DNA of 62,690 nt, filler included, from Nitrospinae bacterium RIFCSPLOWO2_12_FULL_45_22 (GCA_001803565.1; 5 parts of 5 records of this genome joined end to end with filler, not necessarily neighbours in it), one strand, 5' to 3'. Positions 11,511 to 61,738 are shown, numbered from the whole stretch's first letter. Made by a program: numbers and translations. Notes: generated from the sequence alone by a model not told the origin.

Positions 11511-11533
11511 CGAAAATCTATATCCTAACTAAT

Positions 11534-17235: not shown

Positions 17236-17248
17236 TTCTCCTTAGTAC

Positions 17249-17378: not shown

Positions 17379-17379
17379 T

Positions 17380-39249: not shown

Positions 39250-39422
39250 CTGAATTATACACCGCAAAAACGCAAAGAGGATAATGGGTTATTGGGTCAT
39301 TAGGTGACTCTGTTATTGCGCCATTATTTAATAACCTAATAACCTATTGAGGTTCTTTGCGTCCTTTGTGTTTCTGCAGTTATGAATAACGATTGACAAA
39401 ACTTAAGCCGGCATAATTCGGT
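39250..39422. repeat. Three-layer nested palindrome between the dehydratase genes
   Basis: GAATTAT/ATAATTC outer, ACGCAAAGA/TCTTTGCGT middle, ATGGGTTATTGGGTCATTA/TAATAACCTAATAACCTAT inner. Confidence 0.7.
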
Positions 39423-42715: not shown

Positions 42716-42760
42716 CTGGTTTTTGAGTTGACATAGGCATTAGTTTGGTATAAAAAATAC

Positions 42761-42906
42761 GTAAGCGTTCAGCTACCAGCCGTCAGCTTTCAGTAAAAAC
42801 AAGGAGATACTAAAACCAGCCTTCCGCTCCTAAGACCGGGACTTGTTCATAACCCGTTGCTTTGTTTGTTTTGCTGACCACTGATAGCTGACGGCTGAAC
42901 GCTTAC
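42761..42906. mobile_element. MITE-like element with 13-bp terminal inverted repeats and 8-bp target duplication
   Basis: GTAAGCGTTCAGC...GCTGAACGCTTAC flanked by AAAAATAC (42753-42760 and 42907-42914). Confidence 0.85.
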
Positions 42907-43085
42907 AAAAATACAATTGACCGAATAAGACCAATTTCTACCAGAAAAGATCTCCGAGACGGTAAAAGCCGGGGATAGCTCCCATAGTTAATATGCAATT
43001 TAGTAGAGGGGAGTCTATGGGTGTAGAGTCTAATCTTTCCCCTGGTCCTTTATTTAGATTCTTTTCCTAGGCCTGTGGGCTTATC

Positions 43086-43830: not shown

Positions 43831-44137
43831 TTACTTTTGTATGGCATCCAATGGACTTACAATCTTGGAAATATCCTTTTCCATCACATGGGTGTATATT
43901 TCCGTCGTCTTGACATCAGCATGCCCCATGAGTTCCTGAAGAACCCGGATATTAACCCCATTTTCAAGCATATGAGTTGCAAATGAATGGCGAAACGTAT
44001 GACAACTGACGCGTTTAGTAATCTCAGCACGGTCAACCGCTACCTTGACGGCTTTCTGTAGACCGGACTCCAGGGTGTGATGCCGTCTCTTCACTCCTGA
44101 ACGGGGGTCGATACTCAAATTTTTGGCAGGAAAGACA
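43831..44137 (-). CDS. intI: Integron integrase, C-terminal part (5' lost at contig end)
   Basis: [20 protein letters not shown] (integron-specific insertion), [28 protein letters not shown]. Confidence 0.92.
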
Positions 44138-44237
44138 NNNNNNNNNNNNNNNNNNNNNNNNNNNNNNNNNNNNNNNNNNNNTTAATTAATTAANNNNNNN
44201 NNNNNNNNNNNNNNNNNNNNNNNNNNNNNNNNNNNNN
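44138..44237. other. Artificial contig-joining spacer
   Basis: N44-TTAATTAATTAA-N44. Confidence 0.97.
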
Positions 44238-44276
44238 AAACTATTGGCAGATTTTTTTATTTGTGAACGGTTACTT

Positions 44277-46871
44277 TTATTTTATAATGTTTACCAGCAC
44301 GCTGTCATAATACAACCGGTCAAAATCCGGGGTGCCGTTCATAGTCATATCAACTCCGAAATAGAAGGTATATGTACCTTGAGGTAGTCCTGTCAGCAAG
44401 AGTTCAACAGGAGTAGTCAGATCAATTAAAGGGCCCTGATATGTGACAGAAAAGCCAGGTAGCCAGCCTCCCTGTATCTCGTAGTATTTCAGTCCCGACG
44501 GTGTATCCATTACTAACCACCAATCAGCATTTTCACCTGCATTGCCCCGGGCATCAAGGCTAACCTTAACTGAAAGGACATCATTTGTGCCTATGGTACT
44601 TGGATCATCTGAGCCATTTGCACTTATAGCAGGAACAGGATTATCAATGCCTGTGCCTCCTCCGTATCTAAAGACTCCGCCTCCTTGGGTAGCAACATAG
44701 ATTACCCGATCGTTTATGGCAATGTCTTTGACTGCACGTACCATCAATCCCGACATCTTCGAATCTGGAAATGGTGACCAGGTATTCCCCTTATTCAGGG
44801 ATTGATAAACACCAGAATATAGATCTCCCGCATAGATAATATCAGTATTTTTAGGATCAATGACCAGGGCAGAAATATATGGATTACTAGAATTGAAACC
44901 GCTGTTGTGCGGACCTGTCCAGGATGTACCACCGTCCTTACTTATCCATATCCCCCCAAACAATTCACCGGCAATCAGATAATCTGGTTGTTGTGGCTGA
45001 ATAACCAGGGCTTCGATATGCCTGGTACCAAGGCTATCCAGATGTACCCAGCTTATTGCCCCATTTGTGGTTTTATAGACACCATTTGTCGTAGCTGCAT
45101 AAACGATGGTGGAATTATTAGGATCAACCACTAATCCGTTCACATTGTGGCCATCAATAATAGAGGCCATCGGGGAAAATGTAGCACCAGCATCATTAGA
45201 TTTATAGATGACTGTTCCGATAGAAGGAGAAGAAATAAAGGTAGAGCGATCCTTGGCCAGGCCCGCATAAGCCACATCAGGGGCGGAAGGAGCAAATATC
45301 ATGGTTTTAAATCCCTGGCGCCTATTTGGATCGCTGGGGTTAGTTTCTGGATGCCTGAATACCGTAATAAAATCTTTTCCCCCATTAGCACTGCGTAAAA
45401 TAACGCCTTGATGCTCATCAGCTATCAAAACCAGGTTGGAGTTCGTGGGCTTAACAGCAACCGAATACCATTCGGCGAAATTTGCATCGCCGTTACCAAT
45501 GCCGATCCAATCTCCTCCATAATTAGAGCTTACAAAGGGACCGCTCCTCCCGATTGCATAAACGGTGGAGGAATTACTGGCAGGGATACAGAGGTCGTGA
45601 ATTTCCGCTCCAGAGTAACCCTTACTCCAATCTTTCCAGGTTTCCGACCCATCTGTGGAACGGAAAACACCGCCACCATAATTATTGGCATATAAGACGT
45701 CAGAGTTGACAGGATCAACAATTATATCAATTGGGACCCCGGCTCTAACCCCTGGCGGCCCCCAGTCAGCATCTCCAGGCTTAGAAAAACTGCTCCAGGT
45801 TAACCCTCCATTGTTACTTCGATAGAATGCCCTTGCGCTTCCAGCGTAAACGATATTTGGATTCGAGGGGCTGAAATTCACCGTTGTCATGATATCGTTT
45901 GTGATTACCTTGGTCCAGAAGGCACCTCCATCGGCTGTTTTAAATAATCCACTAACAGGGTTACCCGTGTACTGTCCCGAGCATGCATTATTCCCTGTGG
46001 CGGCAAAGAGAATCTGCGGGTTAGTCGGATGCATTCTCAGGCTTCCAACATACAGATCAGTAAATCCATTATTAATCGGGGTCCAGGTTCCCCCCCCATC
46101 AGTGCTTTTTAAAACACCTACACCACCAGGGAGACTATTTGTACAGTCAGAGTTATATGCCTCTCGATCAAAGATACCGGTGGATAGGTATAGAATATCG
46201 GGGTTGGTGGGGTTGATTATTAGATATCTGGCCAGGTTGTCTCCTTGCCAGATCAGGCTCCAGGATTCTCCACCATCTGTCGTTTTATATACCCGTCCTT
46301 TTACCCGGTTGAATTCCCATCCATTTACATCCGTTGGTATTTCGGCCTGAGCATAAACTACATTTGAGTTATCTTGCTGGATAGTAAATCCCCGGAAAAC
46401 TATCCCGATGTCGTCACCTAGTGTAATACCATTGGTTTTTAATGTCCATGTGGTCCCACCGTCTGTACTTTTGAAAACCCCAAAAGCTGATCCCTCTCCA
46501 TTCGTTCCTGCCCAAATAACATCATGATTATTAGGGTCTATGGTCAAGCTGAAAATATTGACAGCATCTCCTGAGGGGCCACCCTTTATAGAGATACCAG
46601 AATTGGCTTGATACCAGGTCTGTCCGGCGTTGATGCTCTTGGCTACCCCTGCATAATTGTCTGTAACATACATGATACTTTTGTTAGCAGGGTTTATACG
46701 AACATCATATCCCAACCCTCCTAATGGTCCACCAGTACTCACCCATGAAGTCTGGGAAGCAGTTTCATCTGTACATAAAAATAGTAATAGAGCAATAAAG
46801 GACAAAAGAAGTAGTAACCTTCTCAGCTTTAATATATTCTTTTTATGCCTTAAGCCCCTTGTCTGATTCAT
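44277..46871 (-). CDS. Secreted VPS10/BNR (Asp-box) double beta-propeller protein with C-terminal beta-sandwich
   Basis: Signal peptide; many S/TxDGGxTW boxes; C-terminal ADWW...LPQGTYTFYFGVD domain. Confidence 0.85.
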   Translation of the reverse strand: MNQTRGLRHKKNILKLRRLLLLLSFIALLLFLCTDETASQTSWVSTGGPLGGLGYDVRINPANKSIMYVTDNYAGVAKSINAGQTWYQANSGISIKGGPSGDAVNIFSLTIDPNNHDVIWAGTNGEGSAFGVFKSTDGGTTWTLKTNGITLGDDIGIVFRGFTIQQDNSNVVYAQAEIPTDVNGWEFNRVKGRVYKTTDGGESWSLIWQGDNLARYLIINPTNPDILYLSTGIFDREAYNSDCTNSLPGGVGVLKSTDGGGTWTPINNGFTDLYVGSLRMHPTNPQILFAATGNNACSGQYTGNPVSGLFKTADGGAFWTKVITNDIMTTVNFSPSNPNIVYAGSARAFYRSNNGGLTWSSFSKPGDADWGPPGVRAGVPIDIIVDPVNSDVLYANNYGGGVFRSTDGSETWKDWSKGYSGAEIHDLCIPASNSSTVYAIGRSGPFVSSNYGGDWIGIGNGDANFAEWYSVAVKPTNSNLVLIADEHQGVILRSANGGKDFITVFRHPETNPSDPNRRQGFKTMIFAPSAPDVAYAGLAKDRSTFISSPSIGTVIYKSNDAGATFSPMASIIDGHNVNGLVVDPNNSTIVYAATTNGVYKTTNGAISWVHLDSLGTRHIEALVIQPQQPDYLIAGELFGGIWISKDGGTSWTGPHNSGFNSSNPYISALVIDPKNTDIIYAGDLYSGVYQSLNKGNTWSPFPDSKMSGLMVRAVKDIAINDRVIYVATQGGGVFRYGGGTGIDNPVPAISANGSDDPSTIGTNDVLSVKVSLDARGNAGENADWWLVMDTPSGLKYYEIQGGWLPGFSVTYQGPLIDLTTPVELLLTGLPQGTYTFYFGVDMTMNGTPDFDRLYYDSVLVNIIK

Positions 46872-46876
46872 CCTGA

Positions 46877-48541
46877 TTACCTCTTGATTATTAAGTTTTT
46901 TCGAGCAATTTCTATATCGGGTATTTTTAAGCCCTTAGCGTCTAACAAATTTTTATACACCCTGCGATAGAGCAATCTGGTAGTTATGTGGAGTGATCTA
47001 GATAGGGTTTTGGGAACATGAAACTGATAGTTTGAAACATCAGACTGATTGGCAGGAATCCTATCATCAGATTCTACAAGCGTGGGACGCCAATGGGGGG
47101 CTGGATATTCATTTTGAAAGTGCCGCTTCCTTCGCCCATCAGGATAGGGCAATAGATCTTTCAACACCTTAGCAAATCCTTTGCCAGGCAAGCCTGCATA
47201 GTTCCCCTCTTCTACCGTTCCAACTCCACCCCATACCGGCACCCGTTCACCTTTGTTCATCAATAAACTGCTCCCATCTCCATCAACAACATCCACCAGC
47301 AGCAACATATTACGCATGGGATTCCCTGTGGGGTAATGATGGCCTGCTTTAACATTTTTAACCGTTACACATACCTTCAATGTATCCCCTGCCAAATTGG
47401 CCTGGGTGATAAGGTCAATCGCCTCCATCATAAAGACCCTATCTCTGACACCAAAAAACAGATGAGAAGGAATTGTCACCGGATCACGCAAAACCCCGCC
47501 TTCTTTTTCTAAAGCAAAGCGGGTCATTTTGCCATCGGGTTTCATATGGCAATCCTGGCAATGAATATTCTCTTTGGCATAAGAACTTTCAGCCCACTCC
47601 TGAAACTCTGAATAAGTCAAGACATTCCAAAATTTCCCGTTGTGACAAGGTGCGCAGTACTGGCTATTTTTATATAAAGGGTGGTAACTATCATCACCCG
47701 GAAAGACATCATCATACGGCCCATAAAAAGTCTGATGTCCATCGGCTGGCCGTTGTAATTTAATGGATAGAATTCCAGGATATCCGCCCGTCTGGTCAAT
47801 ATTAACACCGTTAATCTTATGACAAATATCGCAAAAAATCCCTTCTTTTACAACTCCTTGGGCCTCATTGGGATCAGCACTAAATGGGTTATCTAGAGCT
47901 AAGGCCGGCACATGACAGGTAGTACAATTCCCATTGGAATTTGGAAAGTCCAGCTTATAGCCTAGCCCAATACCTTTTCCCCCGTAAGCATCAGTTCCAT
48001 TAAAAAAGGCCAAAAATAGGGGATTTATTGCAGAACCGGCGTGAGCGCTGTTTCTCCATTGCTCCGTAAGCACCGGGTGGCATACCTGGCAGGGTTTAAC
48101 TTCTACTGTGCTGTCAATTGGCCTAGGCATTTGATCATGTGAGGGTGGAAGCCATTTATATTTCTGGTTATCACTCAACGGGATAGATATTAATATTATA
48201 CGATACTCTTTGTTTTCCCTGGAAACAGGTTGCCCGCCATTATAAAAGCCAGACTTCCAGGCAGTGATATATTTTGAACTGATAACCTCATCAATAACTA
48301 TGTTAAAATGACCTTTTTGATCAGTTAAAGTTAAAAATGAAGTTCCCTGAAGGCGAACAACTGCGTTGCTAATCGGCTGCCCTTTCACATCAACCACAAT
48401 ACCTGAAAACTGGCTTGCAAAAACTACACTTTGTAAAAAGAATAGCTGGAAAAGAGATAAAGGCAAGTAAGCTTTTCTACTATACTTTCCCACTTCTCCA
48501 TAAAGGAACATGTAGCAAAAGCCTTTGTAAGGACATAGCAA
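46877..48541 (-). CDS. Pentaheme c-type cytochrome with N-terminal carboxypeptidase-regulatory-like domain
   Basis: Five CxxCH motifs (CQVCH, CTTCH, CDICH, CAPCH, CQDCH); GHHYPTG motif; start uncertain. Confidence 0.85.
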   Translation of the reverse strand: MLCPYKGFCYMFLYGEVGKYSRKAYLPLSLFQLFFLQSVVFASQFSGIVVDVKGQPISNAVVRLQGTSFLTLTDQKGHFNIVIDEVISSKYITAWKSGFYNGGQPVSRENKEYRIILISIPLSDNQKYKWLPPSHDQMPRPIDSTVEVKPCQVCHPVLTEQWRNSAHAGSAINPLFLAFFNGTDAYGGKGIGLGYKLDFPNSNGNCTTCHVPALALDNPFSADPNEAQGVVKEGIFCDICHKINGVNIDQTGGYPGILSIKLQRPADGHQTFYGPYDDVFPGDDSYHPLYKNSQYCAPCHNGKFWNVLTYSEFQEWAESSYAKENIHCQDCHMKPDGKMTRFALEKEGGVLRDPVTIPSHLFFGVRDRVFMMEAIDLITQANLAGDTLKVCVTVKNVKAGHHYPTGNPMRNMLLLVDVVDGDGSSLLMNKGERVPVWGGVGTVEEGNYAGLPGKGFAKVLKDLLPYPDGRRKRHFQNEYPAPHWRPTLVESDDRIPANQSDVSNYQFHVPKTLSRSLHITTRLLYRRVYKNLLDAKGLKIPDIEIARKNLIIKR

Positions 48542-48629
48542 TACTCCGTCCCTACTTTTGGGATTCCTTCGTGTCTTTTCGTGACTAAAGAGTTACCAAG
48601 GATTTTATTTTCTGAACCTTCTACTAGAT

Positions 48630-51071
48630 TTATGCCAGGGCCTGTTCAGTGCGGGCAATGATCTGGTCTTGGACCTCTCTTTCCATATCCACGTAGTAAG
48701 CGCTAAAGCCTGCTACCCGCACTATTAGATCAGCATAGTTTTCTGGATGTTGCTGGGCGTCCAAAAAGATCTGGCGATCGAGGATATTGAACTGGATATG
48801 ATGAATACCCATATTTACCCAGGTACGCAGATAGCTAAGAAAGGTATCCTGGTGCTCCGGGCTAAGGTACTGGGGTAGAATCTTCTGATTCAGCAGATGA
48901 GTAAAGGTATGGGTATGGTCTATCCTGGCCACTGACTGCAGTACCGCGGTAGGCCCCCGCTTATCGGTACCTATAGCCGGTGATACCGTGCCATCATTAA
49001 ACAGACTGCGATCTTTGCGGCCATCTGGTGTAGCTCCAGTAAGACCACTGTAGGAATAGTAACTAGCACCACCCGTCCCATCCTCGAGGAACGGGCCGCC
49101 CCAAATATTCTTAAAGCCCCTGATGACCCCGGTAGTCCGCAGGTAGAGATCAGCGGCAAAGCGATCCACATAATCGTCATCATTACCAAATTTTGGGGCA
49201 TTGAGGCACATCTGGCGCAAGGCATCTTTACCTTCCCAATTGGTTTTCATGGCCTCCAGCAGCTCTGCCATCGCGACCTTCTTGTCTTCAAATACCAGCT
49301 TCTTGAGCGCTACCAGCGAATTAACCACTGTAACCTGCCCTACGGGCTGGATAATGGTATTGGGGAAGTATTTGTAATGCCGACAGTCCTGCCCCCGCTC
49401 CAGGCAGCCATCCAACAGGGATGATAAGAATGGTTGCGGTAGATACTCTCCATCCAACACATCTACCAGGTTATAGATGGCAACCAATTTCTCGGTAAAG
49501 AACCGCACCTGGTTAAGATGGGCCCCGATGACATCTTCGATAGAAGAAAAGCTCCTTGGGTCTGGGGTAGGATAGCCGATCTGTTTGCCACTAAACTTAT
49601 CAATGCCCTGGTTCAAGGCATATTCCAGACACTTGGGCAAGGCAAACATGCCGCCCAGGGCCCGCATACCCATGGCCTTACCCGGTATTATCCAGCGCAT
49701 ACATCCCTCCGTGGAATAGTCCCGGGCATCCTCCAGGGGTATACCCAGGTTCATCAGGTAAGGGATCATCATCTCATCATTGAAGAAGGAAAAGAGCCCC
49801 GCCATCTTTCTCAAGGTATCGGTAATGGCCACCAGAAATTCCTTCGGAGAATTGCGATGGAGGCGGATAGCAACGGCGGGTTGGGTGAGCCTTACGGACT
49901 TGCTGGCATCCAGGGCAATATAAGTCATTTCATTAGTAGCATCCTCGCCCGTAAGGGTCTGGCCACCAATAGTCAATACCCGGGCGGTTATCAACCCGCC
50001 ACCACCAGCCCCCTGCACCGGGGGGATCAACTGCCCCTCTTCATTCATCTTGAGCCAGAGGTGTTCGACTAACTCCTGGGCCTCTTCACGACTCGACCGG
50101 CCAGCTTCTCTATCTTTCCGATAGAAGGGAAACATGATCTGGTCAAAGCGGTCCCCTAAGCCCGGGGTTTGTAAGTCCAGGATCCGGGTAATAAGGGTGA
50201 TAAACCAATAGCATTGCAGGGCCTCATATAATCCCCTGGGCGGATTAGCTGGCACCCAGCTACATACCTTAGCTATTTCTTCTAATTCCTTTTTCCTATC
50301 TTCATCCTCTTCTTGCTTAGCCAGCTCCAGGGCCTTTTCGGCAAACCTCTGACCAAAGCGGATAGCCGCTTCACACGCTATTATGGTGGCTTCCAGGAAT
50401 CGCTTCCGGGAGAGATATTCTTTGGCATTGAGATAGCTAGCCGGGTCAGTTCCAAGCTCTGCCAGCCGTTCTTTTGCCTCGGCTATTATCCCATTCAACC
50501 CCACCTGGAAGAGCTTATGATAATTAGGCACACCAGTACGCCCCCCATGGATCCAGAGAAATACCCCTTGATTATTATAAAACCAATAGGGCTTGATCTG
50601 GTCAGGCAGCAGCTCCCGCTCCATGCCATGTACAGCCTTATTTTGCCAATACTTATGGATGGTGTGCAGTTCCCTCCGCTCATCTTCGCTCAGCAGCTCC
50701 TTATAGTCAGCATCTATGGCCTTATCTAACCAACGCCAGAATAGTTCTGGGTAAGTAATGAGGGAGCTGGGTTTACTGGCGATATTACCGACAATCCGTT
50801 CATGGGGTAAGATATATATAGTCATGTTATCTAAGAGCTTGGCTATGGCCCTGGCCCGGCGTAAGACCATAGGCTCCCCTTCGGTCTCCTGATAACTCTG
50901 AGTAATCAATCGGGCCCGCTCAATACAGAGCTTGATACCAGCCCGATAAGGCATGCGACTCTCCTTTTTTTCCTGGGCCAGTATACGGCCCAGGCCCCGC
51001 ATGCCCTTGCTCTGATAAATGGGTTCCTGCCGTAATTCTTTTATGGACTTCTTTTCTGCTACTACTGCCAT
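48630..51071 (-). CDS. Glycyl-radical enzyme of unknown specificity
   Basis: CIERARL...RRA N-terminus; C-terminal HIQFN...LIVRVAGFSAYY glycyl loop; Cys loop EGCMRW. Confidence 0.92.
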   Translation of the reverse strand: MAVVAEKKSIKELRQEPIYQSKGMRGLGRILAQEKKESRMPYRAGIKLCIERARLITQSYQETEGEPMVLRRARAIAKLLDNMTIYILPHERIVGNIASKPSSLITYPELFWRWLDKAIDADYKELLSEDERRELHTIHKYWQNKAVHGMERELLPDQIKPYWFYNNQGVFLWIHGGRTGVPNYHKLFQVGLNGIIAEAKERLAELGTDPASYLNAKEYLSRKRFLEATIIACEAAIRFGQRFAEKALELAKQEEDEDRKKELEEIAKVCSWVPANPPRGLYEALQCYWFITLITRILDLQTPGLGDRFDQIMFPFYRKDREAGRSSREEAQELVEHLWLKMNEEGQLIPPVQGAGGGGLITARVLTIGGQTLTGEDATNEMTYIALDASKSVRLTQPAVAIRLHRNSPKEFLVAITDTLRKMAGLFSFFNDEMMIPYLMNLGIPLEDARDYSTEGCMRWIIPGKAMGMRALGGMFALPKCLEYALNQGIDKFSGKQIGYPTPDPRSFSSIEDVIGAHLNQVRFFTEKLVAIYNLVDVLDGEYLPQPFLSSLLDGCLERGQDCRHYKYFPNTIIQPVGQVTVVNSLVALKKLVFEDKKVAMAELLEAMKTNWEGKDALRQMCLNAPKFGNDDDYVDRFAADLYLRTTGVIRGFKNIWGGPFLEDGTGGASYYSYSGLTGATPDGRKDRSLFNDGTVSPAIGTDKRGPTAVLQSVARIDHTHTFTHLLNQKILPQYLSPEHQDTFLSYLRTWVNMGIHHIQFNILDRQIFLDAQQHPENYADLIVRVAGFSAYYVDMEREVQDQIIARTEQALA

Positions 51072-51213
51072 CTCTCTCCCCTCCCTATAAAAATATTATC
51101 GGCCCTAGCTTCCCGCTAAATTTCCCACATCCTTCATTTCGCACAAAAAGTAGCTACCACTTTTACTCAATAAGATTAGTTCACTAATTCACCGAAGAGC
51201 ACGCAGAAATTCT

Positions 51214-51352
51214 GGACGCAGATGAACGCAGATTATGCTATTTCGGGAATACAGAAGTCAGCATGGAAGGAACGATCGAGTTCTATTCTGAATTCTGACT
51301 ACTGACTCCTGTATTCTAAGTTATCCGCGTGAATCTGGGGAAATCTGCGTCC
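51214..51352. repeat. Nested palindrome (GGACGCAGAT arms enclosing GAATACAG/CTGTATTC hairpin)
   Basis: GGACGCAGAT...ATCTGCGTCC outer; inner arms at about 51248-51316. Confidence 0.75.
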
Positions 51353-51393
51353 TCTTATTCAACTTAACAGTTTATAGACAGGAGTATGGGCTG

Positions 51394-51615
51394 TCAATTT
51401 TTTATTTTCTTTTCCAGGGCTTCCCAGCACTCCCAGCGGCAATCATCTGATCCAAACCAACATATCCTGGGCCGATGACAATAAATATGACTGAGTTTGC
51501 TTATCTCCTTACCTGTCGCTGGCTGATGGGTCACCCAACCACAAAGAATCTCCGTTTCTCCTACTTCTTCCGGGCAAATATGGGTTTCTAATTTAAATTG
51601 CAGTATCTGCTCCAT
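51394..51615 (-). CDS. Small Cys/His-rich protein
   Basis: 73 aa from ATG 51615 (AGGGG RBS) with six Cys; upstream of and on the same strand as the glycyl-radical gene. Confidence 0.55.
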   Translation of the reverse strand: MEQILQFKLETHICPEEVGETEILCGWVTHQPATGKEISKLSHIYCHRPRICWFGSDDCRWECWEALEKKIKN

Positions 51616-51718
51616 ATCTTTACCCCTTTGCTTTTTTAGCATTAAATAAAATGGAAATTCCTATGCAATCAAGTTAAGTTTATCACCTTGACGCAGTTAG
51701 GGCTATCTTTATTCTCAC

Positions 51719-52903
51719 TTATATTATTCTTAGACACTGGCCGACATTTTTCAGGGCTAGCAGGGCCCTTTCGAGCTGCGCAGAGGTATGGGTAGCCATG
51801 AGGCTTATCCGCAGGCGGCATTTGCCTTCTGGCACTGTAGGGGGTCGGATAGCGGGGGTATATACCCCTTGTTCCAGCAAGCCCTGGGCAAAGGCGCTAG
51901 TCTTCTCTAGCTCGCCTACTAAGATAGGGATGATATGGCCCTGGCTATCCATCAGATCAAAGCCTAGCTCTAGTAATGCCTGGCGGAAATAATTTACCCG
52001 CGCCCATAGTTGTTGTCGGAGCTGGGGTTGGCTTTCTATCAATGCTAAAGCAGCTAAAGAGCCGGCCAGGATACTGGGTGGTGGCGCGGTAGAATAGATA
52101 AAACTGCGGGCCTTGTGCCGCAAATAATCCACCAACCTTTCTGTCCCCACCACGTACCCACCTAAGTTCCCCAGGGTCTTGCTCAGGGTTCCTATCTGGA
52201 GGGGTATTTTATCCTCCAGACCAAAATGCTCCACCGTACCCCGGCCTTCCTTGCCTAACACGCCAAAACCATGGGCATCATCAATAAGGACCAGGGCCCC
52301 ATACTCTTCAGCTAATTTACAGATTCCAGGTAATGGCGCCAGGTCTCCATCCATACTGAAGACCCCTTCAGTAATGATCCAGTGCCGGGCGTATTGCTGG
52401 CTTTGGGAGAGGATCTGTTTGAGGTGCTCTAAGTCTTTGTGACGATAGATGGCCCGGGCCGCACTACTGAGGCGGCAGGCATCAATAATACTGGCATGGT
52501 TCAACTGGTCACTGATGATTAAGTCCTGGGGGCCTTGGGCCAGGGAAGTAATAAGGCCCAGGTTAGCCATATAGCCGGTAGAGAATAGGATAGCTGCAGG
52601 GTATCCCTTGAACCGGGCCAGCTTCCTCTCTAGCTCTTCATGTAGGGCCAGGTTACCCGAGATTAAACGAGAAGCCCCAGTACCAGTACCATAGTGGGCC
52701 AGGGCCTCCTGCGCTGCCTTGATAACATGGGAATGGGCATGGAGCCCCAGGTAGCTATTGGAAGAAAGGAGGACTATTTCCTGGCCATGCCAGAAGGCTG
52801 TAGGACCCGGTATGCCGTCCAGACTTTTTAAAGAACGGGACAGGCCCTTTTGCGCTATCTCTTCCAAAGCCTGTCCCAGGTAATCCTCCAGCCAGAAGCT
52901 CAT
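51719..52903 (-). CDS. bioF: 8-amino-7-oxononanoate synthase
   Basis: SSNSYLGL, GTGASRLISG, NHASIIDA, FSMDGD, DDAHG, GTLSK; start ATG 52903 overlaps the bioU stop. Confidence 0.95.
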   Translation of the reverse strand: MSFWLEDYLGQALEEIAQKGLSRSLKSLDGIPGPTAFWHGQEIVLLSSNSYLGLHAHSHVIKAAQEALAHYGTGTGASRLISGNLALHEELERKLARFKGYPAAILFSTGYMANLGLITSLAQGPQDLIISDQLNHASIIDACRLSSAARAIYRHKDLEHLKQILSQSQQYARHWIITEGVFSMDGDLAPLPGICKLAEEYGALVLIDDAHGFGVLGKEGRGTVEHFGLEDKIPLQIGTLSKTLGNLGGYVVGTERLVDYLRHKARSFIYSTAPPPSILAGSLAALALIESQPQLRQQLWARVNYFRQALLELGFDLMDSQGHIIPILVGELEKTSAFAQGLLEQGVYTPAIRPPTVPEGKCRLRISLMATHTSAQLERALLALKNVGQCLRII

Positions 52904-53892
52904 CGTACTATCATCGGCATAAATTCGGTAGAACCATAGACACCATAGATAGCCTTGTCTCGCAGCCACCAGGCCCGCTTGAGATAACCCAGGGCGGGGC
53001 CTACCACATTATCGGCCATAGTGGTCTCATCACCTAAAACGAAGCGATGCGTGCTCTTCTGGCCACTCAAGGTTATACCGGTTAGGGTCATCGTGGTAGT
53101 GACCGGTTTCTTACTAGATCGGGTATCCATGATACCACCCACTATGACCTTATTCCGGCTATCTACGACCCCTACTCTCTCCAGGAGTAAATCATCGGCG
53201 TGCTCCATCTCCTGAAATTCTAGCCTCCCCTCCCGGGCATCCAGTAATGCCTCTACTTCTTGATCGGTCAGGGCTTTAGCTGTTTCTACAGTATAACCGG
53301 GCAGATGGGCAATATCTTCCCGAATAGTAGCTTTATAATCCTGCCAGCTAGAGACCCCTACCCCCCACCATATCTTTACCTCCTCTACTTGCTGGAAGGA
53401 CTGGGCAGCTAATACCGCCGCGGCTGTTAATAGGCCCGGCGTCGCACCAGCACCAGTAATGTAGGTACTCCTGACTTCTTTCAGTCCTCGGTCTAGTTGG
53501 AACATCTGCTCCATAGCCCTGGTCCTTTTCAAGGCATCAGTAAACACCCCGCTATAGCCGGCATCAATAAAGCGCTCTATTATTTTGGCGATAAAGTCAT
53601 TAGGTAGATTAGGGAGGGCCACAAAGATCCCATCAATAGACTTTCCCAGGGCAATAATCTCACCAATAGAGTCCGGGCAATGCACCCCACCCGAAAACAG
53701 ATCAGCTACTGAACCCTGCGGTTTTATCTGGTAAATCTCCTGGCCATCCAACCCTTTTTCGCTATAGGCATAGCCCCCTTGATCACAGATAGCGACTAAC
53801 CTCATCTCCCTTTTTAAGCTGATAAAACGGGCGGCTGCCTTACCCAGCCCGCCTGCCCCCAGGATAGCTATCCGGCATGGTCTTTTTTCCAT
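52900..53892 (-). CDS. bioU: BioU (BioA-replacing suicide enzyme)
   Basis: GAGGLG Rossmann motif, ALPNLPN, DALKRT, GATPGLLTAAA, ATIREDIAHLPG, GDETTMADNV; located between bioB and bioF. Confidence 0.88.
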   Translation of the reverse strand: MEKRPCRIAILGAGGLGKAAARFISLKREMRLVAICDQGGYAYSEKGLDGQEIYQIKPQGSVADLFSGGVHCPDSIGEIIALGKSIDGIFVALPNLPNDFIAKIIERFIDAGYSGVFTDALKRTRAMEQMFQLDRGLKEVRSTYITGAGATPGLLTAAAVLAAQSFQQVEEVKIWWGVGVSSWQDYKATIREDIAHLPGYTVETAKALTDQEVEALLDAREGRLEFQEMEHADDLLLERVGVVDSRNKVIVGGIMDTRSSKKPVTTTMTLTGITLSGQKSTHRFVLGDETTMADNVVGPALGYLKRAWWLRDKAIYGVYGSTEFMPMIVR

Positions 53893-53916
53893 CTCTTCCT
53901 CCTTTCTATAGCCGAC

Positions 53917-54169
53917 GTCATTGGTCACTAGTGTAACGTTACATTAAAATGTTTCCAATGCGTAACCAAGTCTTTGCCACGAAGTCACAAAGACACAAAA
54001 TTTCTAATTCATTGTTTTTAAAGGAAAAAATAACTCTTTGTGCCTTAGTGCCTTTGTGGCTAATACAAGTTTTTAATGTATATATTTTAATGAAACGTTC
54101 TACTAGTCATTGGTCAATAGCAAATGCAGAGCAACAAGGATTTAACCTAATGACTAATGACCAGTGACT
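53917..54169. mobile_element. Triple-nested element: heptamer hairpin, CTAG-bounded MITE, inner hairpin
   Basis: GTCATTGGTCA arm interrupted at CTAG by CTAGTGTAACGTTACATTAAAAT...ATTTTAATGAAACGTTCTACTAG (53928-54106), which contains GCCACGAAG...CTTTGTGGC (53976-54060). Confidence 0.75.
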
Positions 54170-55157
54170 AATAACGGCCACTATAAGTTTCTAAGCCTAA
54201 ATCTTTTATCATCTGCAAATCTTCGGCTGCATCCCTCCCGGGTGTAGTAAGATACCCACCGATAATTAAGCCATTGGCACCAGCTAAAATACCCAGGGAT
54301 TGCAAATCCCGCAGATTTCTCTCCCTTCCACCAGCCAGCTTAATAATGCTATTTGGTAAAATCAGGCGAAAGATAGCAATAGTCTTTATTATCTCCCAGG
54401 GTGGTAGGGGGGGGGTATGCTCAAGGGGTGTGCCGGGTCTAGGGTTAAGGATATTAATAGTAGCACAATCTACTTCCAGCTCCTTCAAGGCAAAGGCTAG
54501 TTCCAGCCGCTGTTCCCATGTTTCACCCAGGCCTATTATCCCCCCACAGCAAGCCTCTAAGCCCGCTTCCTGTACCGACCTTATTGTGTCCCAGCGTTCC
54601 TGATAAGTATGGGTAGAGCAAATATTAGGAAAGAAGCTTTCTGCGGTCTCCAGGTTGTGGTTATAGCGGCTAATCCCTACCCGGTGCAGCTCTATCATAT
54701 ATTCCCTGGGGAGGTGTCCTAAAGAGCAGTCCAGCCTTAGCCCGGTAGTTCTCTTTAACTCTTCCAGGGTCTCTAATATCATCCCAAATTCTGTCTTGCT
54801 TACCCTTTTGCCACTGGTGACGAGGCAGAAATGGTCTGCCCCGCGCTGCTCCGCTTCCCTGGCTGCCTGTATTATTATCGAAGGGTCTAATAGAGGATAG
54901 GAAGGAGCCGAGGAATTATAGTGGATAGACTGGGCACAAAAGGCACAGTCTTCCTGACATTGCCCTGACCTGGCATTGATCAAAGAACAAAAATCCACCT
55001 TATCGCCTCTTTGCCTCTCCCGCACTTCACAAGCCACAGCCACCAAAGCCAGGATATCATTCTTTCGGTTTAGGTCGGTTAAAACTCGGACCTCAGACAG
55101 GCTTATACCCTTACCTTCCAGAACCTTCTCTCCCAATGTCTTAATCGCAGCTAGCAT
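54168..55157 (-). CDS. bioB: Biotin synthase
   Basis: CQEDCAFCAQS radical SAM motif, YNHNLET, CCGGIIGLGE, AGGRE, GGYLTT. Confidence 0.97.
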   Translation of the reverse strand: MLAAIKTLGEKVLEGKGISLSEVRVLTDLNRKNDILALVAVACEVRERQRGDKVDFCSLINARSGQCQEDCAFCAQSIHYNSSAPSYPLLDPSIIIQAAREAEQRGADHFCLVTSGKRVSKTEFGMILETLEELKRTTGLRLDCSLGHLPREYMIELHRVGISRYNHNLETAESFFPNICSTHTYQERWDTIRSVQEAGLEACCGGIIGLGETWEQRLELAFALKELEVDCATINILNPRPGTPLEHTPPLPPWEIIKTIAIFRLILPNSIIKLAGGRERNLRDLQSLGILAGANGLIIGGYLTTPGRDAAEDLQMIKDLGLETYSGRY

Positions 55158-55189
55158 AAGCTATACCCATTCACTATGAAATTTATCAA

Positions 55190-55822
55190 TGTAAAGCTTA
55201 AAACGAAAAGCGCAAAACTAAGGATAAATTACCTTAATACTCTAATTCATAAGTTCGGTGACGTATTTAAAAACTATTTACTTGTGTAAAAAGAGGAGAT
55301 TTTGAGATTATGGAGATGTGGAGATAATCCATCTATTCAGCCTCAATCCTTCGGAAGTCTGCCATCTCTTTTGCAAAATTGACAAGGATGGCCAATTTAA
55401 GTCCGGTGGCTTTCAGGTAGGAACGAACCTGAGCATAATGTGCTTTGCTCAATTCTTCCACGGTTTTCAGCTCTACGATTACCCTATCTTCCACCACAAG
55501 ATCAAGTCTGTGCCGACCTACTTCCTCATCTCTGTAATAAATGATTACTTCCTTCTCCGTCTCCACTCTTAGAGACTGACTTCTTAATTCGATTAGTAAC
55601 GTTTTGCGGTAAATGCTTTCTAAAAAGCCTGGACCAAGAGTTTGGTGAACTTTGATGATCGCTTGTATTATTGTCTCGGTAAGCTTATCTTGTTGATATT
55701 CCATAACTTTATCTCCAGCATCTCCTTATCGCCTTATTTTACACCCGCTGCGAGATTTAGCTGGGAGGTTTATAATATGTCAGCGTATTTGTGAATTCGT
55801 GTACTTAGTTTTAAGCTTTACA
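55190..55822. mobile_element. Long nested inverted-repeat element carrying the GxxExxY gene
   Basis: Perfect 15-bp outer arms TGTAAAGCTTAAAAC (55190) / GTTTTAAGCTTTACA (55808), plus inner arms 55284-55327 / 55709-55744. Confidence 0.7.
55333..55704 (-). CDS. GxxExxY family protein (PD-(D/E)XK nuclease fold)
   Basis: LGPGFLESIY; RLDLVVEDRVIVELK; QVRSYLK. Confidence 0.92.
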   Translation of the reverse strand: MEYQQDKLTETIIQAIIKVHQTLGPGFLESIYRKTLLIELRSQSLRVETEKEVIIYYRDEEVGRHRLDLVVEDRVIVELKTVEELSKAHYAQVRSYLKATGLKLAILVNFAKEMADFRRIEAE

Positions 55823-55831
55823 CTCTACGCT

Positions 55832-56815
55832 TTACGCTTTGTTCATCTGCAGAGAGACATCCCCAGTATAGATTTTTATCTGTTGGCCGGAGGCTAACCG
55901 AAGGATCAGAGCCCCATGCTCATCTACATCTTCAGCCATGCCTTCTAAGGTTCCCTGTTCAGAGACGACTCGTACCTCTTTATTCAGGGTCATCAATGAA
56001 TTACGCCACTCTTTTACGATAAGAAGCCCCTTACCCGCTTGTAGCTCCTTATACTCCTTCTCCATCTCTTGTAGGAGACCCACCAGGAATTTTAGCCGGG
56101 AGATTTCCTGCCCTAGCTCTAAATAAATACTGGTGGCACTATAGGCAATTTCAGGATATATAGTAGGATCGAAATTCATATTAACCCCTATACCTACGAC
56201 TACATAGACCACCTGATCTTGCTCGGCCGAAAATTCTGTAAGTATACCACCAACCTTATTCCCGCGGATCATTATGTCATTAGGCCATTTTATTGAAGAT
56301 TCCAACGGGGTTAGGGCCTCGATGGTTTTCACTACAGATAGAGAGGCTATCATAGTAATATAGGACACCTGGATAGGCGAGAGATGGGGGCGGAGGATAA
56401 GGGATATCAATATGTTCTTATTGGCAGGCGAGAGCCACTCCCGGCCCATCCTACCCCGGCCCTGGGTCTGCTCTTCTGCAATGACCAACGTACCTTCTCT
56501 GGCCCCTTGACTGGCCAACTCCTTGGCCAGCACATTAGTGGAAGTAGTAACCGGATAATAATAGACCTCCTGGCCAATGAAATCTGTCTTTAATTCCCTC
56601 TTGATAAAGACGGGGAGTAATTTATCCGGGCAACTGATCAGGCAATAACCCAGGTTGGGCTGCGACTCTATATGAAAACCCTGCCCCCGTAATGTCTTTA
56701 TCTTCTTCCAGACGGCTGTGCGGGAAACTTTTAACCTCTCGGCTATAGCCTCTCCTGAGATAAACCCTTTTTCTCTGATAAGCATATCTAACAAAACCAT
56801 ATCATCCCCCACCAT
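55832..56815 (-). CDS. birA: Bifunctional biotin ligase/repressor
   Basis: N-terminal HTH (SGE.IA..L.VSRTAVWK), QTQGRGRMGR, KWPND, KVGGIL. Confidence 0.96.
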   Translation of the reverse strand: MVGDDMVLLDMLIREKGFISGEAIAERLKVSRTAVWKKIKTLRGQGFHIESQPNLGYCLISCPDKLLPVFIKRELKTDFIGQEVYYYPVTTSTNVLAKELASQGAREGTLVIAEEQTQGRGRMGREWLSPANKNILISLILRPHLSPIQVSYITMIASLSVVKTIEALTPLESSIKWPNDIMIRGNKVGGILTEFSAEQDQVVYVVVGIGVNMNFDPTIYPEIAYSATSIYLELGQEISRLKFLVGLLQEMEKEYKELQAGKGLLIVKEWRNSLMTLNKEVRVVSEQGTLEGMAEDVDEHGALILRLASGQQIKIYTGDVSLQMNKA

Positions 56816-56850
56816 AGCACTCCTTCTCTCCAGGGAAAATATTATGGCCT

Positions 56851-56878
56851 ATTTTAATCCCAGATGCCCCATTGTCAA
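56851..56878 (-). promoter_or_regulatory. Probable birA/bio promoter, possibly overlapped by a BirA operator
   Basis: Minus strand TTGACA-N16-TAAAAT; plus strand TGTCAAC-N17-GTTAACG (56873-56903) loosely resembles a BirA box. Confidence 0.45.
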
Positions 56879-57011
56879 CCATTTTTTATTATCCCCGTTA
56901 ACGACCCTAGGCCTTAGTAACAGTTCACCAGGGTCAGGGATCAGTTGTCAGGCAGGTCTTTTTAGCGAGCAGTGAGAGGAGGTGTGGAAAAAAACTCCAC
57001 TCGTTTTTGGG

Positions 57012-57040
57012 TTGACTACACTAGAATAAAGCACTATCCT
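57012..57040 (+). promoter_or_regulatory. sigma70-type promoter upstream of the NusG paralog
   Basis: TTGACT-N17-TATCCT. Confidence 0.5.
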
Positions 57041-57179
57041 ATTTGAACCTGATTTGTTCCGGGGATTTAATTTTAAATTATGGAGACGCACCCCAGGCAG
57101 GGTGCCATAGCCTGCTGCTTCCTCCCTTCCTTTGTCAGCTCCCTCTCAGGGCTTGACATTTTCCCAGGAGGATAGAACA

Positions 57180-57328
57180 ATGGAGTGTTGGTATGCCATT
57201 AATACCAAGCCCCATAAGGAATCTTTTTGTGAAAATAATTTTCAGCGCATCTCTCTGGAGACCTTTTACCCCAGGTTGAAAGAGAAGAGGGTTATACGGC
57301 GAAAATATATCTGGACCACCGGCCCGCT
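57180..57328 (+). CDS. RfaH/UpxY-like NusG paralog, N-terminal fragment
   Basis: AGGAGG RBS; MECWYAINTKPHKE...ETFYP...GP matches the start of an NGN domain; cut by spacer. Confidence 0.75.
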
Positions 57329-57428
57329 NNNNNNNNNNNNNNNNNNNNNNNNNNNNNNNNNNNNNNNNNNNNTTAATTAATTAANNNNNNNNNNNNNNNN
57401 NNNNNNNNNNNNNNNNNNNNNNNNNNNN
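57329..57428. other. Artificial contig-joining spacer
   Basis: N44-TTAATTAATTAA-N44. Confidence 0.97.
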
Positions 57429-57730: not shown

Positions 57731-58408
57731 ATGTCACGCATCTTTGTCCCCTCCTCCGGTCCCGGCGACTGGCGCTGCCTGCTTGCAGACCCAGAAAAGC
57801 ACTGGGTGCGTAGGCGCTCCGCACGAACGCTGGCGCATTGCTGGGAAGACACAGATGGCTTTCCTCCCGAAGTGCAGGCTGTTCTGAAGCAACACCCCGC
57901 GCTTGCTGAGGCTGAGCCCCTGTTGATCTTTCCCGAGTGGAAAGTTGCTCTGCCCGGTGGTTCAACTTCCTCTCAGAATGACGCTTGGGTTCTCGCCAAG
58001 AACCAAACAGGCCTGATTTCCATAGCGGTCGAGGGGAAGGTCGAGGAGCCATTCGATAAGACACTTGCTGAATGGAAGGCAGATTCCTCACTTGGCAAAG
58101 AGAAACGTCTTTCCTTTCTTACTGAAATCCTTGGGTTCTCCTCGCCCATCCCAGACTCAGTGCGGTATCAGCTCGTGCATCGCACAGCCTCGGCCGTCAT
58201 TGAGGCGCAGCGGTTTGGCGCACAACACGCCGTGATGCTCGTCCATTCATTCAGCCACAACGACGAGTGGCATAGTGACTTCGCTGCCTTCGTTTCGCTG
58301 TTCGGTCACACGGCGCAGGTTGGTCGGCTGGTTTCGGCTACTGCAGCAACTGGTCTACCACTCCATCTGGCGTGGGTTCATGGCGATGAGCGGTTCTTGG
58401 ATGCGTAG
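57731..58408 (+). CDS. Integron cassette 1: PD-(D/E)XK-like protein (DUF6946-like)
   Basis: PEWKVALPGG...SQND...IAVEGKVEEPF, RYQL.HR; cassette bounded by GTTAGCACTCAGG / CCTGAGTGCTAAC. Confidence 0.75.
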   Translation: MSRIFVPSSGPGDWRCLLADPEKHWVRRRSARTLAHCWEDTDGFPPEVQAVLKQHPALAEAEPLLIFPEWKVALPGGSTSSQNDAWVLAKNQTGLISIAVEGKVEEPFDKTLAEWKADSSLGKEKRLSFLTEILGFSSPIPDSVRYQLVHRTASAVIEAQRFGAQHAVMLVHSFSHNDEWHSDFAAFVSLFGHTAQVGRLVSATAATGLPLHLAWVHGDERFLDA

Positions 58409-58414
58409 CCTGAG

Positions 58415-58445
58415 TGCTAACCACGCGTTCCAGCGGGCGTTAGCC
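58415..58445 (+). mobile_element. Internally deleted attC
   Basis: R'' TGCTAAC, spacer, L'' TTCCAGCG, then almost directly R' GTTAGCC; only 31 bp long. Confidence 0.65.
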
Positions 58446-58511
58446 GCACCACATGATTAAGAAGATGAAAAGCTCAGGTTTGATTCCTTAACCAGCCACT
58501 TGGTAGGACCA

Positions 58512-59390
58512 ATGAAAGAGAGATTATTTAGCGAGCGACATGAAAAGGCTCTCCGTAGCAAACGCATCAAGGTCAGCCTGCGACAGGAACTTCGACGGAG
58601 TCTACAGCGTTTGTTCAACCGGTACTCTGTTTGGGGTGGATGGGACAATGAAGAGAATTTCACTTGCCAAGCAGTTGCGAGTGCGCTCTTAGACCGACGT
58701 GGATGGCAGACACTTCTCTGGTGGGATGGTAAGGAGATGCAGCCGGCTTCCAACTTCGACGACTTCATCGAGAAGGCCACACCTCACCACATCCTTGATG
58801 CTATTGAGTTGTTTCGGCAAGAATTGGACTACAAGAAAGTTCCGAGTTTCGTCTCCGAGCTGAATACGCTATTTGAGATCCATCATTCCAACTTGCGGTA
58901 CTTTCGAGGGGAGTTTTACCTCATCGACTCAGCCTTCTTGGAATCAGAGGTCTTGTCTCAGGCGCAGAAGCTACTAGCTACTAGCAATTTCGAGGGAGCA
59001 CTTGAGGAATTCCTCGATGCGCGGTCTGCTTTTCTTGAAAAAGATTTCAAACGGTCTGTCCTGTTGGCCAACCACGCCTTCGAGAGTACAATGAAAGCCA
59101 TCCTGGGAACGCAGAAGAAGACTGGAGAATTAATTAAAAAAGTATGTCGGGACGGTCATGTTCCGCCTTACTATGAGGGGTTCCTCGAACACTTTCAGGA
59201 GTTTCTCAACATTGTTCCTACGACGCGAAGCAACGAAGCCGGACATGGCCAAGGGAAGGATATTACAACAGTCCCCGCCCCTCTTGCTGAACTTGTATTA
59301 CACCTATCAGGATCACTAATCGTCTTTCTGATTAAGCGATACATGGAAAGGAATCCAGAGGAAAGTAGCGACGAGGATGTCCCCTTTTAG
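58512..59390 (+). CDS. Integron cassette 2: AbiJ-like abortive-infection protein with HEPN-like C-terminus
   Basis: N-terminal LFSERH; C-terminal A..AFES.MK and RSNEAGHG (R...H) motif. Confidence 0.7.
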   Translation: MKERLFSERHEKALRSKRIKVSLRQELRRSLQRLFNRYSVWGGWDNEENFTCQAVASALLDRRGWQTLLWWDGKEMQPASNFDDFIEKATPHHILDAIELFRQELDYKKVPSFVSELNTLFEIHHSNLRYFRGEFYLIDSAFLESEVLSQAQKLLATSNFEGALEEFLDARSAFLEKDFKRSVLLANHAFESTMKAILGTQKKTGELIKKVCRDGHVPPYYEGFLEHFQEFLNIVPTTRSNEAGHGQGKDITTVPAPLAELVLHLSGSLIVFLIKRYMERNPEESSDEDVPF

Positions 59391-59415
59391 GACGGATGAA
59401 GAACAAAAGAATACC

Positions 59416-59479
59416 GCCGAACAACCGGCTCCACCGGATCGCCGATAAATTCGGCTCCCGGTGAGCCGCAGCGTTGGGC
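59416..59479 (+). mobile_element. attC site
   Basis: GCCGAAC-AACCGG-CTCCACCG...GCCGA/TCGGC...CGGTGAG-CCGCAGC-GTTGGGC. Confidence 0.88.
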
Positions 59480-59573
59480 AGCTTAGAAATTTTCCGTTTG
59501 ACTGGAATGATGGCTTTTTACCCTTTAGCCACTTGTACGATGTTTAGGAACAACAACTTTGGGATCGAGATGT

Positions 59574-59816
59574 ATGCCAGTATTAAAAGAGTTATCCCAA
59601 AAATATAGTTTCAAAATCATTATACCGACCAATGACCATGAGCCCAAGCATGTCCATATCTTCAAAGGAGACGATAATTATGCTAAGATCGAAATTGAGA
59701 CTCTCAAAGTAGTTCGCTCCTATCTGAAGAAAAAGGAGCTGAAACAAGCTATTGAAATTATCAAAGGAAATCAGGAATACTTAATTCAAAAATGGAATGA
59801 GATTATCGGAGGGTAA
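59574..59816 (+). CDS. DUF4160-family toxin-like protein (cassette 3)
   Basis: NDHEPKHVHI...KWNE; ATG at 59574. Confidence 0.82.
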   Translation: MPVLKELSQKYSFKIIIPTNDHEPKHVHIFKGDDNYAKIEIETLKVVRSYLKKKELKQAIEIIKGNQEYLIQKWNEIIGG

Positions 59817-59818
59817 TT

Positions 59819-60055
59819 ATGTTTAAATGCAAAGAGGTCAGAATAGATCATGAATACTTGCATGTGGAACTGGAAGACGGACGTATCATATCTACCCCAT
59901 TGAATTGGTATAAGCCACTATTGTCAGCCAATGAGGAACAAAAAAGAAATTACAAATTGATTGGTAGAAAGACTATGATCGAGTGGCCTAATCTAGACTT
60001 GCATCTTGATATAGAAGAAATGTTTAGAGTCGATCGGAAGGAAGAAGCTGCTTAA
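59819..60055 (+). CDS. DUF2442-family antitoxin-like protein (cassette 3)
   Basis: LHVELEDGRIISTPLNWY..L..A..EQ..NY......IEWP.LD. Confidence 0.88.
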   Translation: MFKCKEVRIDHEYLHVELEDGRIISTPLNWYKPLLSANEEQKRNYKLIGRKTMIEWPNLDLHLDIEEMFRVDRKEEAA

Positions 60056-61561: not shown

Positions 61562-61680
61562 TGCAAAGCAAGCTTTGCCACGACATTTTGTAGAAGACTC
61601 GTTATTAGGTCATTAAGTAATTAGGTTATTAATTACGCAATGACTTAATAACCTAATAACGAAATGGTGTAGTGGTCGAG
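61562..61680. repeat. Divergent GTAG-REP pair with inserted ATTAGGT palindrome
   Basis: TGCAAAGCAAGCTTTGCCACGAC ... GTTATTAGGTCATTAAGT/ACTTAATAACCTAATAAC (61601-61660) ... GTAGTGGTCGAG; followed by an N gap at 61681-61709. Confidence 0.7.
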
Positions 61681-61738
61681 NNNNNNNNNNNNNNNNNNNN
61701 NNNNNNNNNCAGTGGCAACTAATTGCTGAGGAAAACGA

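Follow-up and report, generated by a model that had tools for sequence, protein, structure and literature searches.

A putative GxxExxY nuclease gene between birA and bioB lies within nested inverted repeat arrays and shares the anatomy of rRNA intervening sequences

Among described elements, the closest in form to the one reported here are the intervening sequences (IVSs) of ribosomal RNA. According to one account (PMC4990558), the IVS in helix 45 of Coxiella is a selfish element of about 430 nt closed by a 28-bp terminal stem, with an S23p ORF in its loop; GACAGAT heptamers, three in tandem, stand between a Shine-Dalgarno (SD)-like sequence and the ATG, and RNase III cuts the element at the first repeat. 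The same account describes a sporadic distribution, with horizontal gain followed by vertical keeping, and treats the origin and spread of IVSs as questions open since 1990. A second related system is that of the RAYT genes, for which paralogue-specific repeats, gene-less copies and vertical persistence are the features given in PMC3337134. For the GxxExxY (PDDEXK_3) proteins, the only survey that we found enters the function as unknown (PMC3424549).

The window, by which we mean the whole stretch of DNA analysed (62,690 nt, filler included), consists of several metagenome contigs strung together via runs of N around TTAATTAATTAA (joins at 12507-12606, 31565-31664, 44138-44237, 57329-57428 and 61681-61709), so that features on different pieces need not be linked. 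The locus under study lies on the piece 44238-57328 and is identical to locus L082. Its genes, all on the minus strand, run birA, a 123-aa ORF, bioB, a BioU homologue and bioF, and the expression of bioB therefore requires transcription through the insert. The features of the locus are these:

56851-56878, minus strand: promoter-like site TTGACA-16-TAAAAT upstream of birA (11/12, a consensus match only)
55832-56815, minus strand: birA (HTH and biotin ligase; profile matches), upstream gene of the operon
55807-55840, no strand assigned: outer right arm, an array of AAAGCGT-type 7-mers in the sense of the gene (TRF period 7, 4.4 copies)
55745-55806, no strand assigned: middle right arm (repeat I1 and the collinear flank alignment)
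55705-55744, minus strand: inner arm upstream of the ORF in the sense of the gene, with the end motif GTGTAAAAT followed by GGRGAT-type units of about 8 nt
55333-55704, minus strand: GxxExxY/PDDEXK_3 ORF of 123 aa, the putative cargo at the hairpin apex (profile matches and an alignment of 45 sequences)
55284-55331, minus strand: inner arm past the stop codon, ATCTCC-type units of period 8 terminating in TTTTTACAC in the sense of the gene (TRF period 8, 3.8 copies, 7 nt from the stop)
55232-55283, no strand assigned: middle left arm, partner of 55745-55806 (I1)
55188-55224, no strand assigned: outer left arm, an array of period 7 nt that includes the perfect 15-mer 55190-55204
54168-55157, minus strand: bioB (profile matches), downstream gene
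52900-53928, minus strand: BioU homologue (NF047886, E 1.7e-121, yet under the cut-off of that model)
51719-52969, minus strand: bioF (profile match)

The operon carries the BioU homologue instead of bioA, and the end of this gene overlaps the start of bioF. Elsewhere in the window, 7295-12475 holds three UbiD-family paralogues and a phenylphosphate-carboxylase gamma-like gene, and genes for a glycyl-radical enzyme and HGD-D are also present; together these suggest an anaerobic degrader of aromatic compounds. The contig piece with 57731-60055 encodes DUF6946, an AbiJ-N-terminal/DUF7014 protein and a DUF4160-DUF2442 pair, and a second DUF2442 gene lies at 32041-32319.

The sequence-only reading of this DNA had placed a gene of PD-(D/E)XK fold, of the GxxExxY type, between birA and bioB, and the profile searches agree. 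The 123-aa product matches PF13366 (PDDEXK_3, its sole Pfam match; E 1.6e-39, 135.3 bits against a cut-off of 22) and TIGR04256 (GxxExxY; E 3.9e-40, 136.8 bits against a cut-off of 35), with the GxxExxY motif at G26-E29-Y32 and putative catalytic residues D68, E78, K80 and Q92. Nine residues are invariant across the 45 aligned family sequences (G24, G26, E29, Y32, D68, E78, K80, Q92 and N109), a pattern that matches an intact PD-(D/E)XK site and makes the protein a putative nuclease. Sequence and profile searches of the PDB returned no relative and the Atlas no match, and the best matches to other families were PADLOC Cas4b (E 3.5e-4) and PHROGs phrog_1706 (E 1.4e-3); sub-threshold similarity to Cas4 occurs in 25 of the 45 family members (best E 0.005). 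The protein is conserved at about 80% identity across phyla, as judged from source names, this one query matched 6,934 database clusters, and 1-12 copies are present in 51 of the 101 genomes that were sampled from a single phylum. The gene is chromosomal: it was found in 0 of 50,697 phage records and in 8 of 72,556 plasmids.

The two flanks of the ORF are collinear reverse complements of each other. Global alignment of the left flank (55158-55332, 175 nt) with the reverse complement of the right flank (55705-55831, 127 nt) scores 64, compared with 19.5 +/- 5.3 for shuffled flanks (0 of 500 reach 64) and 12 for the same two flanks in direct orientation; the shuffles preserve base composition only, and the control ORFs described below are the real yardstick. 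Reading outwards from the gene, a perfect 9-mer (I17) abuts both ends of the ORF, 55284-55317 pairs with 55711-55744 (I2, 34 nt, 76%), 55233-55275 pairs with 55766-55808 (I1, 43 nt, 72%), and 55190-55222 pairs with 55804-55835 (I3/I4), including a perfect 15-nt pair between 55190-55204 and 55808-55822. The outer right arm runs over the birA stop codon (55832-55834) and the final birA codons. The perfect outer pair and the repeat arms touching both ends of the ORF had been described from the sequence alone and are present as described; the further inner pairs named in that reading all fall inside longer imperfect arms, two of its 9-mers being complementary at 8 of 9 positions and not perfect. 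The observation of a gene enclosed in nested arms is confirmed.

In the predicted minimum free energy (MFE) fold of the sense RNA, the flanks pair as one long interrupted stem that closes the ORF. The inner upstream arm, which is covered by repeats I2, I6, I16 and I17, is paired in this fold and contains the SD sequence GGAG (55713-55716, 8 nt ahead of the ATG), as it should if pairing hides the ribosome-binding site, which had been the claim. The folding energy of the whole transcript is unremarkable (z -1.7 against 20 shuffles), and an Rfam scan of 54100-57300 gave no match. We set the bounds of the cassette proper at 55284-55744 (about 460 bp) on the basis of the arms and end motifs that are common to close relatives in unrelated contexts (see below). 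An IS element or MITE with terminal inverted repeats was rejected on the lack of a transposase and of a target-site duplication, no direct repeat being readable in the sequence outside 55284/55744 or 55190/55822.

The only strong promoter-like site is the one upstream of birA. Neither promoter-like nor terminator-like sites were found in the intergenic flanks (55158-55332 and 55705-55831), so that read-through from the birA site is the simplest form of transcription; a weak promoter-like match (9/12) lies inside the ORF at 55696-55667. A search for RNA sequencing runs that contain the locus found none. Across the family, the upstream neighbour is co-directional with the GxxExxY gene in 49 of 60 loci, with a median gap of 67 nt. 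Arm mismatches show no bias towards G:U on the sense strand (76 vs 74) and so give no sign of selection for a stem in the sense RNA; the absence of a G:U excess fits homogenisation at the DNA level at least as well as a role in RNA.

That inverted arrays might enclose GxxExxY genes in general had been proposed as a check on the locus, and it turned out well for the family. We aligned the 200 nt upstream of each gene to the reverse complement of the 200 nt downstream, with z>4 as the threshold. The metagenome scan supplied 80 loci with relatives, the window's own contig among them, and L081 brought the number to 81; four without ORF bounds, five with a flank under 80 nt and two failing a 150-nt flank rule were left out, and L088, L142 and L146 (short flanks) and L096 (broken ORF) were removed by hand. 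Inverted flanks were found at this threshold in 45 of the 66 genes tested, which include four near-duplicate pairs (median z 6.2), and in 13 of 20 genes in an independent set that took one gene from each of 20 genomes within a single phylum. Of 755 control ORFs, drawn from these loci and from the BirA loci, only 2.6% passed, and two of the five strongest controls are GxxExxY genes themselves. The threshold was not reached by 21 genes of the metagenomic set and 7 of the genome-derived set. Complementary arms are general to the GxxExxY family.

These arms repeat short units of 6-10 nt in tandem (period mostly 8-10, range 5-30). The arrays lie mostly 0-25 nt away from the start and stop codons and are mirrored across the ORF, with units that include CACGAAGG, CACAGAGG, CRCAGATAAA, ACAGGATTA and GGRGATAN. 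Of 43 non-redundant arms upstream of an ORF, 35 are rich in purines on the sense strand, and each GxxExxY paralogue within one genome has a different unit type. An Rfam scan of 20 short GxxExxY loci gave 0 matches and placed no GxxExxY gene inside rRNA. Many cassettes of one phylum (L239, L240, L241, L253 and others) have the ends (T)TAACCRC ... GYGGTTAA. The GTGTAAGAA end of the window's clade differs from the (T)TAACCRC common in other clades, so that speaking of one class rests on architecture. Two further loci have unusual layouts. In L203 (G013:C2:137900-140400) the GxxExxY gene stands amid about 14 tandem 107-nt units that bear ACAGGATG arrays on both sides, and in L204 (G012:C364:2300-3700) inverted GCGAAG-type arrays about 510 nt apart surround an ORF of 163 aa, which TIGR04256 does not match in that genome and which shows a hydrophobic stretch by eye; this ORF may be a third kind of cargo.

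Nine close relatives of the window's gene, at 64-80% amino acid identity, have mostly GGRGAT-type arms. Three of the nine (L084, L087 and L089) carry GTGTAAGAA/TTCTTACAC ends on both sides, and two others (L083 and L088) have TTCTTACAC on the downstream side alone. The neighbours of these genes are unrelated to one another and include a heptosyltransferase, a PIN gene, a Ser/Thr kinase, a cobalamin gene and a sigma factor. By this comparison the arms travel with the gene into unrelated contexts in this clade, and belong to the gene and not to the site. Stable synteny with biotin genes would have spoken for a resident of the operon; among BirA loci of other species, 0 of 80 hold a GxxExxY gene, and bioB adjoins birA in only 8 of the 80. 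The search for an insert-free birA-bioB junction was successful in part: L069, the only BirA locus ordered birA, bioB, bioF, belongs to another species and has a plain spacer of about 120 nt without an insert, whereas no contig joining birA to bioB without the cassette, that is, no allelic empty junction, was found in four public sequencing runs (X2, X12, X18 and X20).

Logan contigs from these four runs were compared to the region, and copies of the arms that lack the gene are present among them. Depth over 55149-55331 is 3-5 times that of neighbouring genes, and three of the four runs contain a contig of 162 nt that passes from 55289-55331 through about 3 nt into a sequence resembling the right inner arm, with only the ORF absent. 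Contigs of X2 and X18 join 55224 to 55807 over 12 other letters between foreign flanks, and so represent an outer hairpin that lies elsewhere and lacks the ORF. The runs also contain 55232-55299 as a copy whose left flank is a different one, and depth over the middle left arm rises to 36-72 vs 11-16. The ORF-less contigs may derive from the same organism, given their similar depths, or from community neighbours. In L085, an ORF-less copy of the arms stands beside a GxxExxY gene. That the same arms exist in ORF-less versions, as the sequence-only reading supposed, is thereby borne out. Within one genome, G013, 39 arrays of the type flanking one GxxExxY paralogue were counted vs 0 for a reversed control pattern. 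Fifteen of these surround the gene and 24 are spread over 14 other places, with inverted-array hairpins in 5 of the 12 regions fetched around those other places.

The window holds further ORF-less array hairpins, at 7590-7676, 17246-17380, 42760-42907, 39278-39352 and 61599-61662 (fold z -3.1 to -6.9), none of them of the GGAGAT type. The first three are built of CAGC-type units of about 7 nt and have a common GTAAGCG...CGCTTAC end, a motif also seen beside the GxxExxY cassette of the unrelated contig L084; at 17246-17380 a second hairpin is nested in the loop of the first. The other two hairpins are TTAGGT/AATAACC-type arrays, like the arms of a cassette in another genome (L209) that carries a gene of PF05635, the ORF family of the 23S-rRNA IVS.

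The element in the window has the same anatomy as the published IVS and a similar unit core, and we therefore tested PF05635 genes that lie outside rRNA. Inverted flanks were found at z>4 in 8 of 13 such genes and at z 3.2-3.9 in three more, and arrays are visible by eye at the remaining two (L215 and L218). The likeness to an IVS extends to the terminal inverted repeats, which would pair as a stem around a loop that holds an ORF of about 120 aa, to the short tandem repeats directly before the ORF (compare GACAGAT), to the SD-like sequence in the stem, and to the arm anatomy that PF05635 genes outside rRNA share with the window's element, one of them at a GxxExxY site. The differences are that the window's element lies in the spacer of an mRNA operon (birA-bioB) and not in a helix of 16S or 23S rRNA, that its cargo is a PF13366 PD-(D/E)XK nuclease and not S23p/PF05635, and that its arms are longer and nested, with excision by RNase III inferred. 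The sequence-only reading had suggested an undescribed class of elements. We found no description, in open-access papers and bioRxiv, of arrays flanking GxxExxY, PDDEXK_3, PF13366 or PF05635 genes; the anatomy is that of the 23S-rRNA IVS, and the class is not wholly undescribed. At least two kinds of cargo occur in it, the GxxExxY nucleases and the four-helix-bundle proteins of PF05635/S23p. Four of the five genomes searched in which no GxxExxY gene was found have PF05635 cassettes with the same arms, and the nuclease is therefore unlikely to be a general mobiliser, the role for which it had been put forward as a candidate.

Comparison of related genomes shows turnover at fixed sites. In G013 and G014, a PF05635 cassette lies between flanks that are 96-100% identical, which we take from their encoded peptides to be metK-like and ahcY-like; the cassettes themselves have a mean identity of about 60% (26-76% per 50-nt window), and their units differ in both arms. 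Relatives of G013 vary in what they carry downstream of an rfbB-like gene. A GxxExxY cassette at 80-85% amino acid identity is present in G022, G020 and G019, with a partial one in G029; in G021 the GxxExxY copy is split over two frames, the cassette of G028 and G014 is 67% identical, inverted and built of other units, and G030 has a PF05635-like ORF with its own arms. These variants imply that the arms change in concert and that cassettes can invert, decay and be replaced, and they indicate that the two cargos are interchangeable at one conserved site. No empty spacer was found at the rfbB-like site among the syntenic relatives whose spacer was examined, and no empty birA-bioB allele was found in the four runs, so that movement is read from replacement and context and not from presence and absence.

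We interpret the gene as the cargo of an IVS-type palindromic cassette of about 460 bp, nested in ORF-less hairpins and belonging to a widespread class with alternative cargos, with a nuclease that would serve its own cassette and would not mobilise the class in general; we give this reading a probability of roughly 0.65. The middle and outer arms would then be two further ORF-less hairpin modules that enclose 55284-55744 in their loop, both of them older than the cassette nested in them. The promoterless cassette would ride on the birA-bio transcript, in which its arms would form a long duplex that hides the SD sequence and the AUG. By analogy with the IVS, RNase III may cut this duplex, which would both make the insert tolerable and free the RNA of the ORF. 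In DNA, the arms would permit hairpin formation, inversion and replacement. The nuclease may serve its own cassette by cutting hairpins that are ORF-less or empty, either as a homing enzyme does or in a structure-specific manner; action on the hairpins of its own cassette seems to us the likeliest role of the protein, at about one chance in three.

Two other kinds of element share parts of this design. Homing endonuclease genes, which include PD-(D/E)XK ones such as I-Ssp6803I, are likewise small nuclease genes embedded in an element that renders the insertion harmless, and they too show turnover at one fixed site, with decayed and replaced versions; the cassette in the window differs in that it has no self-splicing intron or intein, and no empty allele was found. 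Integron gene cassettes resemble it in their promoterless ORFs, expressed via read-through, and in their bounds of imperfect inverted repeats conserved more in structure than in sequence, but the window's repeats lie on both sides of the ORF in place of a single attC, and there is neither an integrase nor a cassette array. An integrase fragment (43831-44118) lies on another contig than the nuclease cassette.

The gene-less copies could also be read in the manner of REPINs and RAYTs, with the GxxExxY protein as a single-copy, vertically kept enzyme that makes and disperses ORF-less array hairpins in trans and whose own gene is merely flanked by them. The GxxExxY gene is, like a RAYT gene, flanked by inverted repeats, which for one type in G013 and perhaps for the window's arms recur gene-less in the same genome, with a repeat type per paralogue and with single-copy, vertically persistent genes, and this view gains from the private unit type of each paralogue, the 39 arrays of G013 against none for the control, the ORF-less copies of the window's arms at similar depth in the same metagenomes, and the persistence of orthologous cassettes across several related genomes. 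We nevertheless consider it unlikely, since the tie between gene and repeat type is loose: GCGAAG arrays in G013 and G014 and GGATG arrays in G014 occur without that type at any inspected GxxExxY gene, and genomes in which no GxxExxY gene was found still have PF05635 cassettes with their arrays, Bacteroides thetaiotaomicron matching PF05635 and not TIGR04256. Copy numbers, moreover, are in the tens and not the hundreds, the arms are tandem arrays of 6-10-nt units where a REPIN has a single REP palindrome, and the enzyme is not an HUH/Y1 (IS200-like) transposase; we know of no case of strand transfer by a PD-(D/E)XK nuclease alone. A toxin-antitoxin or defence module, in which the arrays would encode a small RNA to control or guide the nuclease after the manner of type III toxin-antitoxin systems, would explain the tandem repeats directly upstream of the nuclease gene and could draw on the sub-threshold Cas4 similarity reported above. 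Type III antitoxin repeats, however, are about 35 nt long and one-sided, whereas the GxxExxY units measure 6-10 nt and are mirrored on both sides, no PADLOC family other than the weak Cas4 was matched, another protein family (PF05635) is flanked by the same arms, and the gene is missing from the phage records and rare in plasmids, all of which makes this account very improbable.

The position of the locus within a BirA-controlled operon raises the alternative of host regulation, in which the repeats would serve to control that operon, as a BirA operator, an attenuator or a terminator, and the gene would be there by chance, and the TGTAAAG/CTTTACA ends of the outer pair do bear what we assume to be a resemblance to BirA half-sites. 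We find this hardly credible, and the least probable of the alternatives. GGRGAT-type arms accompany the gene beside unrelated genes, copies of both the outer and the inner arms are found elsewhere in the community with no bio genes, and the flanks gave neither an Rfam match nor a terminator-like site. The 15-mer pair was itself rejected as a BirA operator, there being no TGTAAAG-N(8-30)-CTTTACA site in the window and a better operator-like palindrome overlapping the promoter-like site upstream of birA. That palindrome is imperfect (TGTCAAC-N17-GTTAACG, within 56851-56905) and may be the BirA operator.

The interpretation first given to the locus is partly supported, and the reading of an IVS-type cassette with alternative cargos can be carried further. 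IVSs might be the part so far visible of a large superfamily, made up of palindromic cassettes that insert into the loops of hairpins and reside in intergenic spacers of many bacterial phyla with GxxExxY or S23p cargo. The nuclease would be a structure-specific homing enzyme that cuts ORF-less array hairpins, after which repair would copy the ORF into the loops. We regard this extension as possible but doubtful; we found no description of such a superfamily in open-access papers and bioRxiv. If true, it would account both for the nested hairpins seen here and for the preference of IVSs for the loops of rRNA helices.

It appears from these comparisons that the usual place of a GxxExxY gene is the apex of an IVS-like hairpin composed of short tandem units, that S23p-type genes outside rRNA are placed likewise, and that the two cargos can share a site. 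The function of the GxxExxY proteins and the origin and spread of IVSs would thereby become one testable system, for which the arms and the ORF-less hairpins offer clear substrates for biochemistry. Genomes can be searched for such cassettes by a simple rule, the inverted-array layout, and the cassettes themselves would be a source of structured inserts inside operons.
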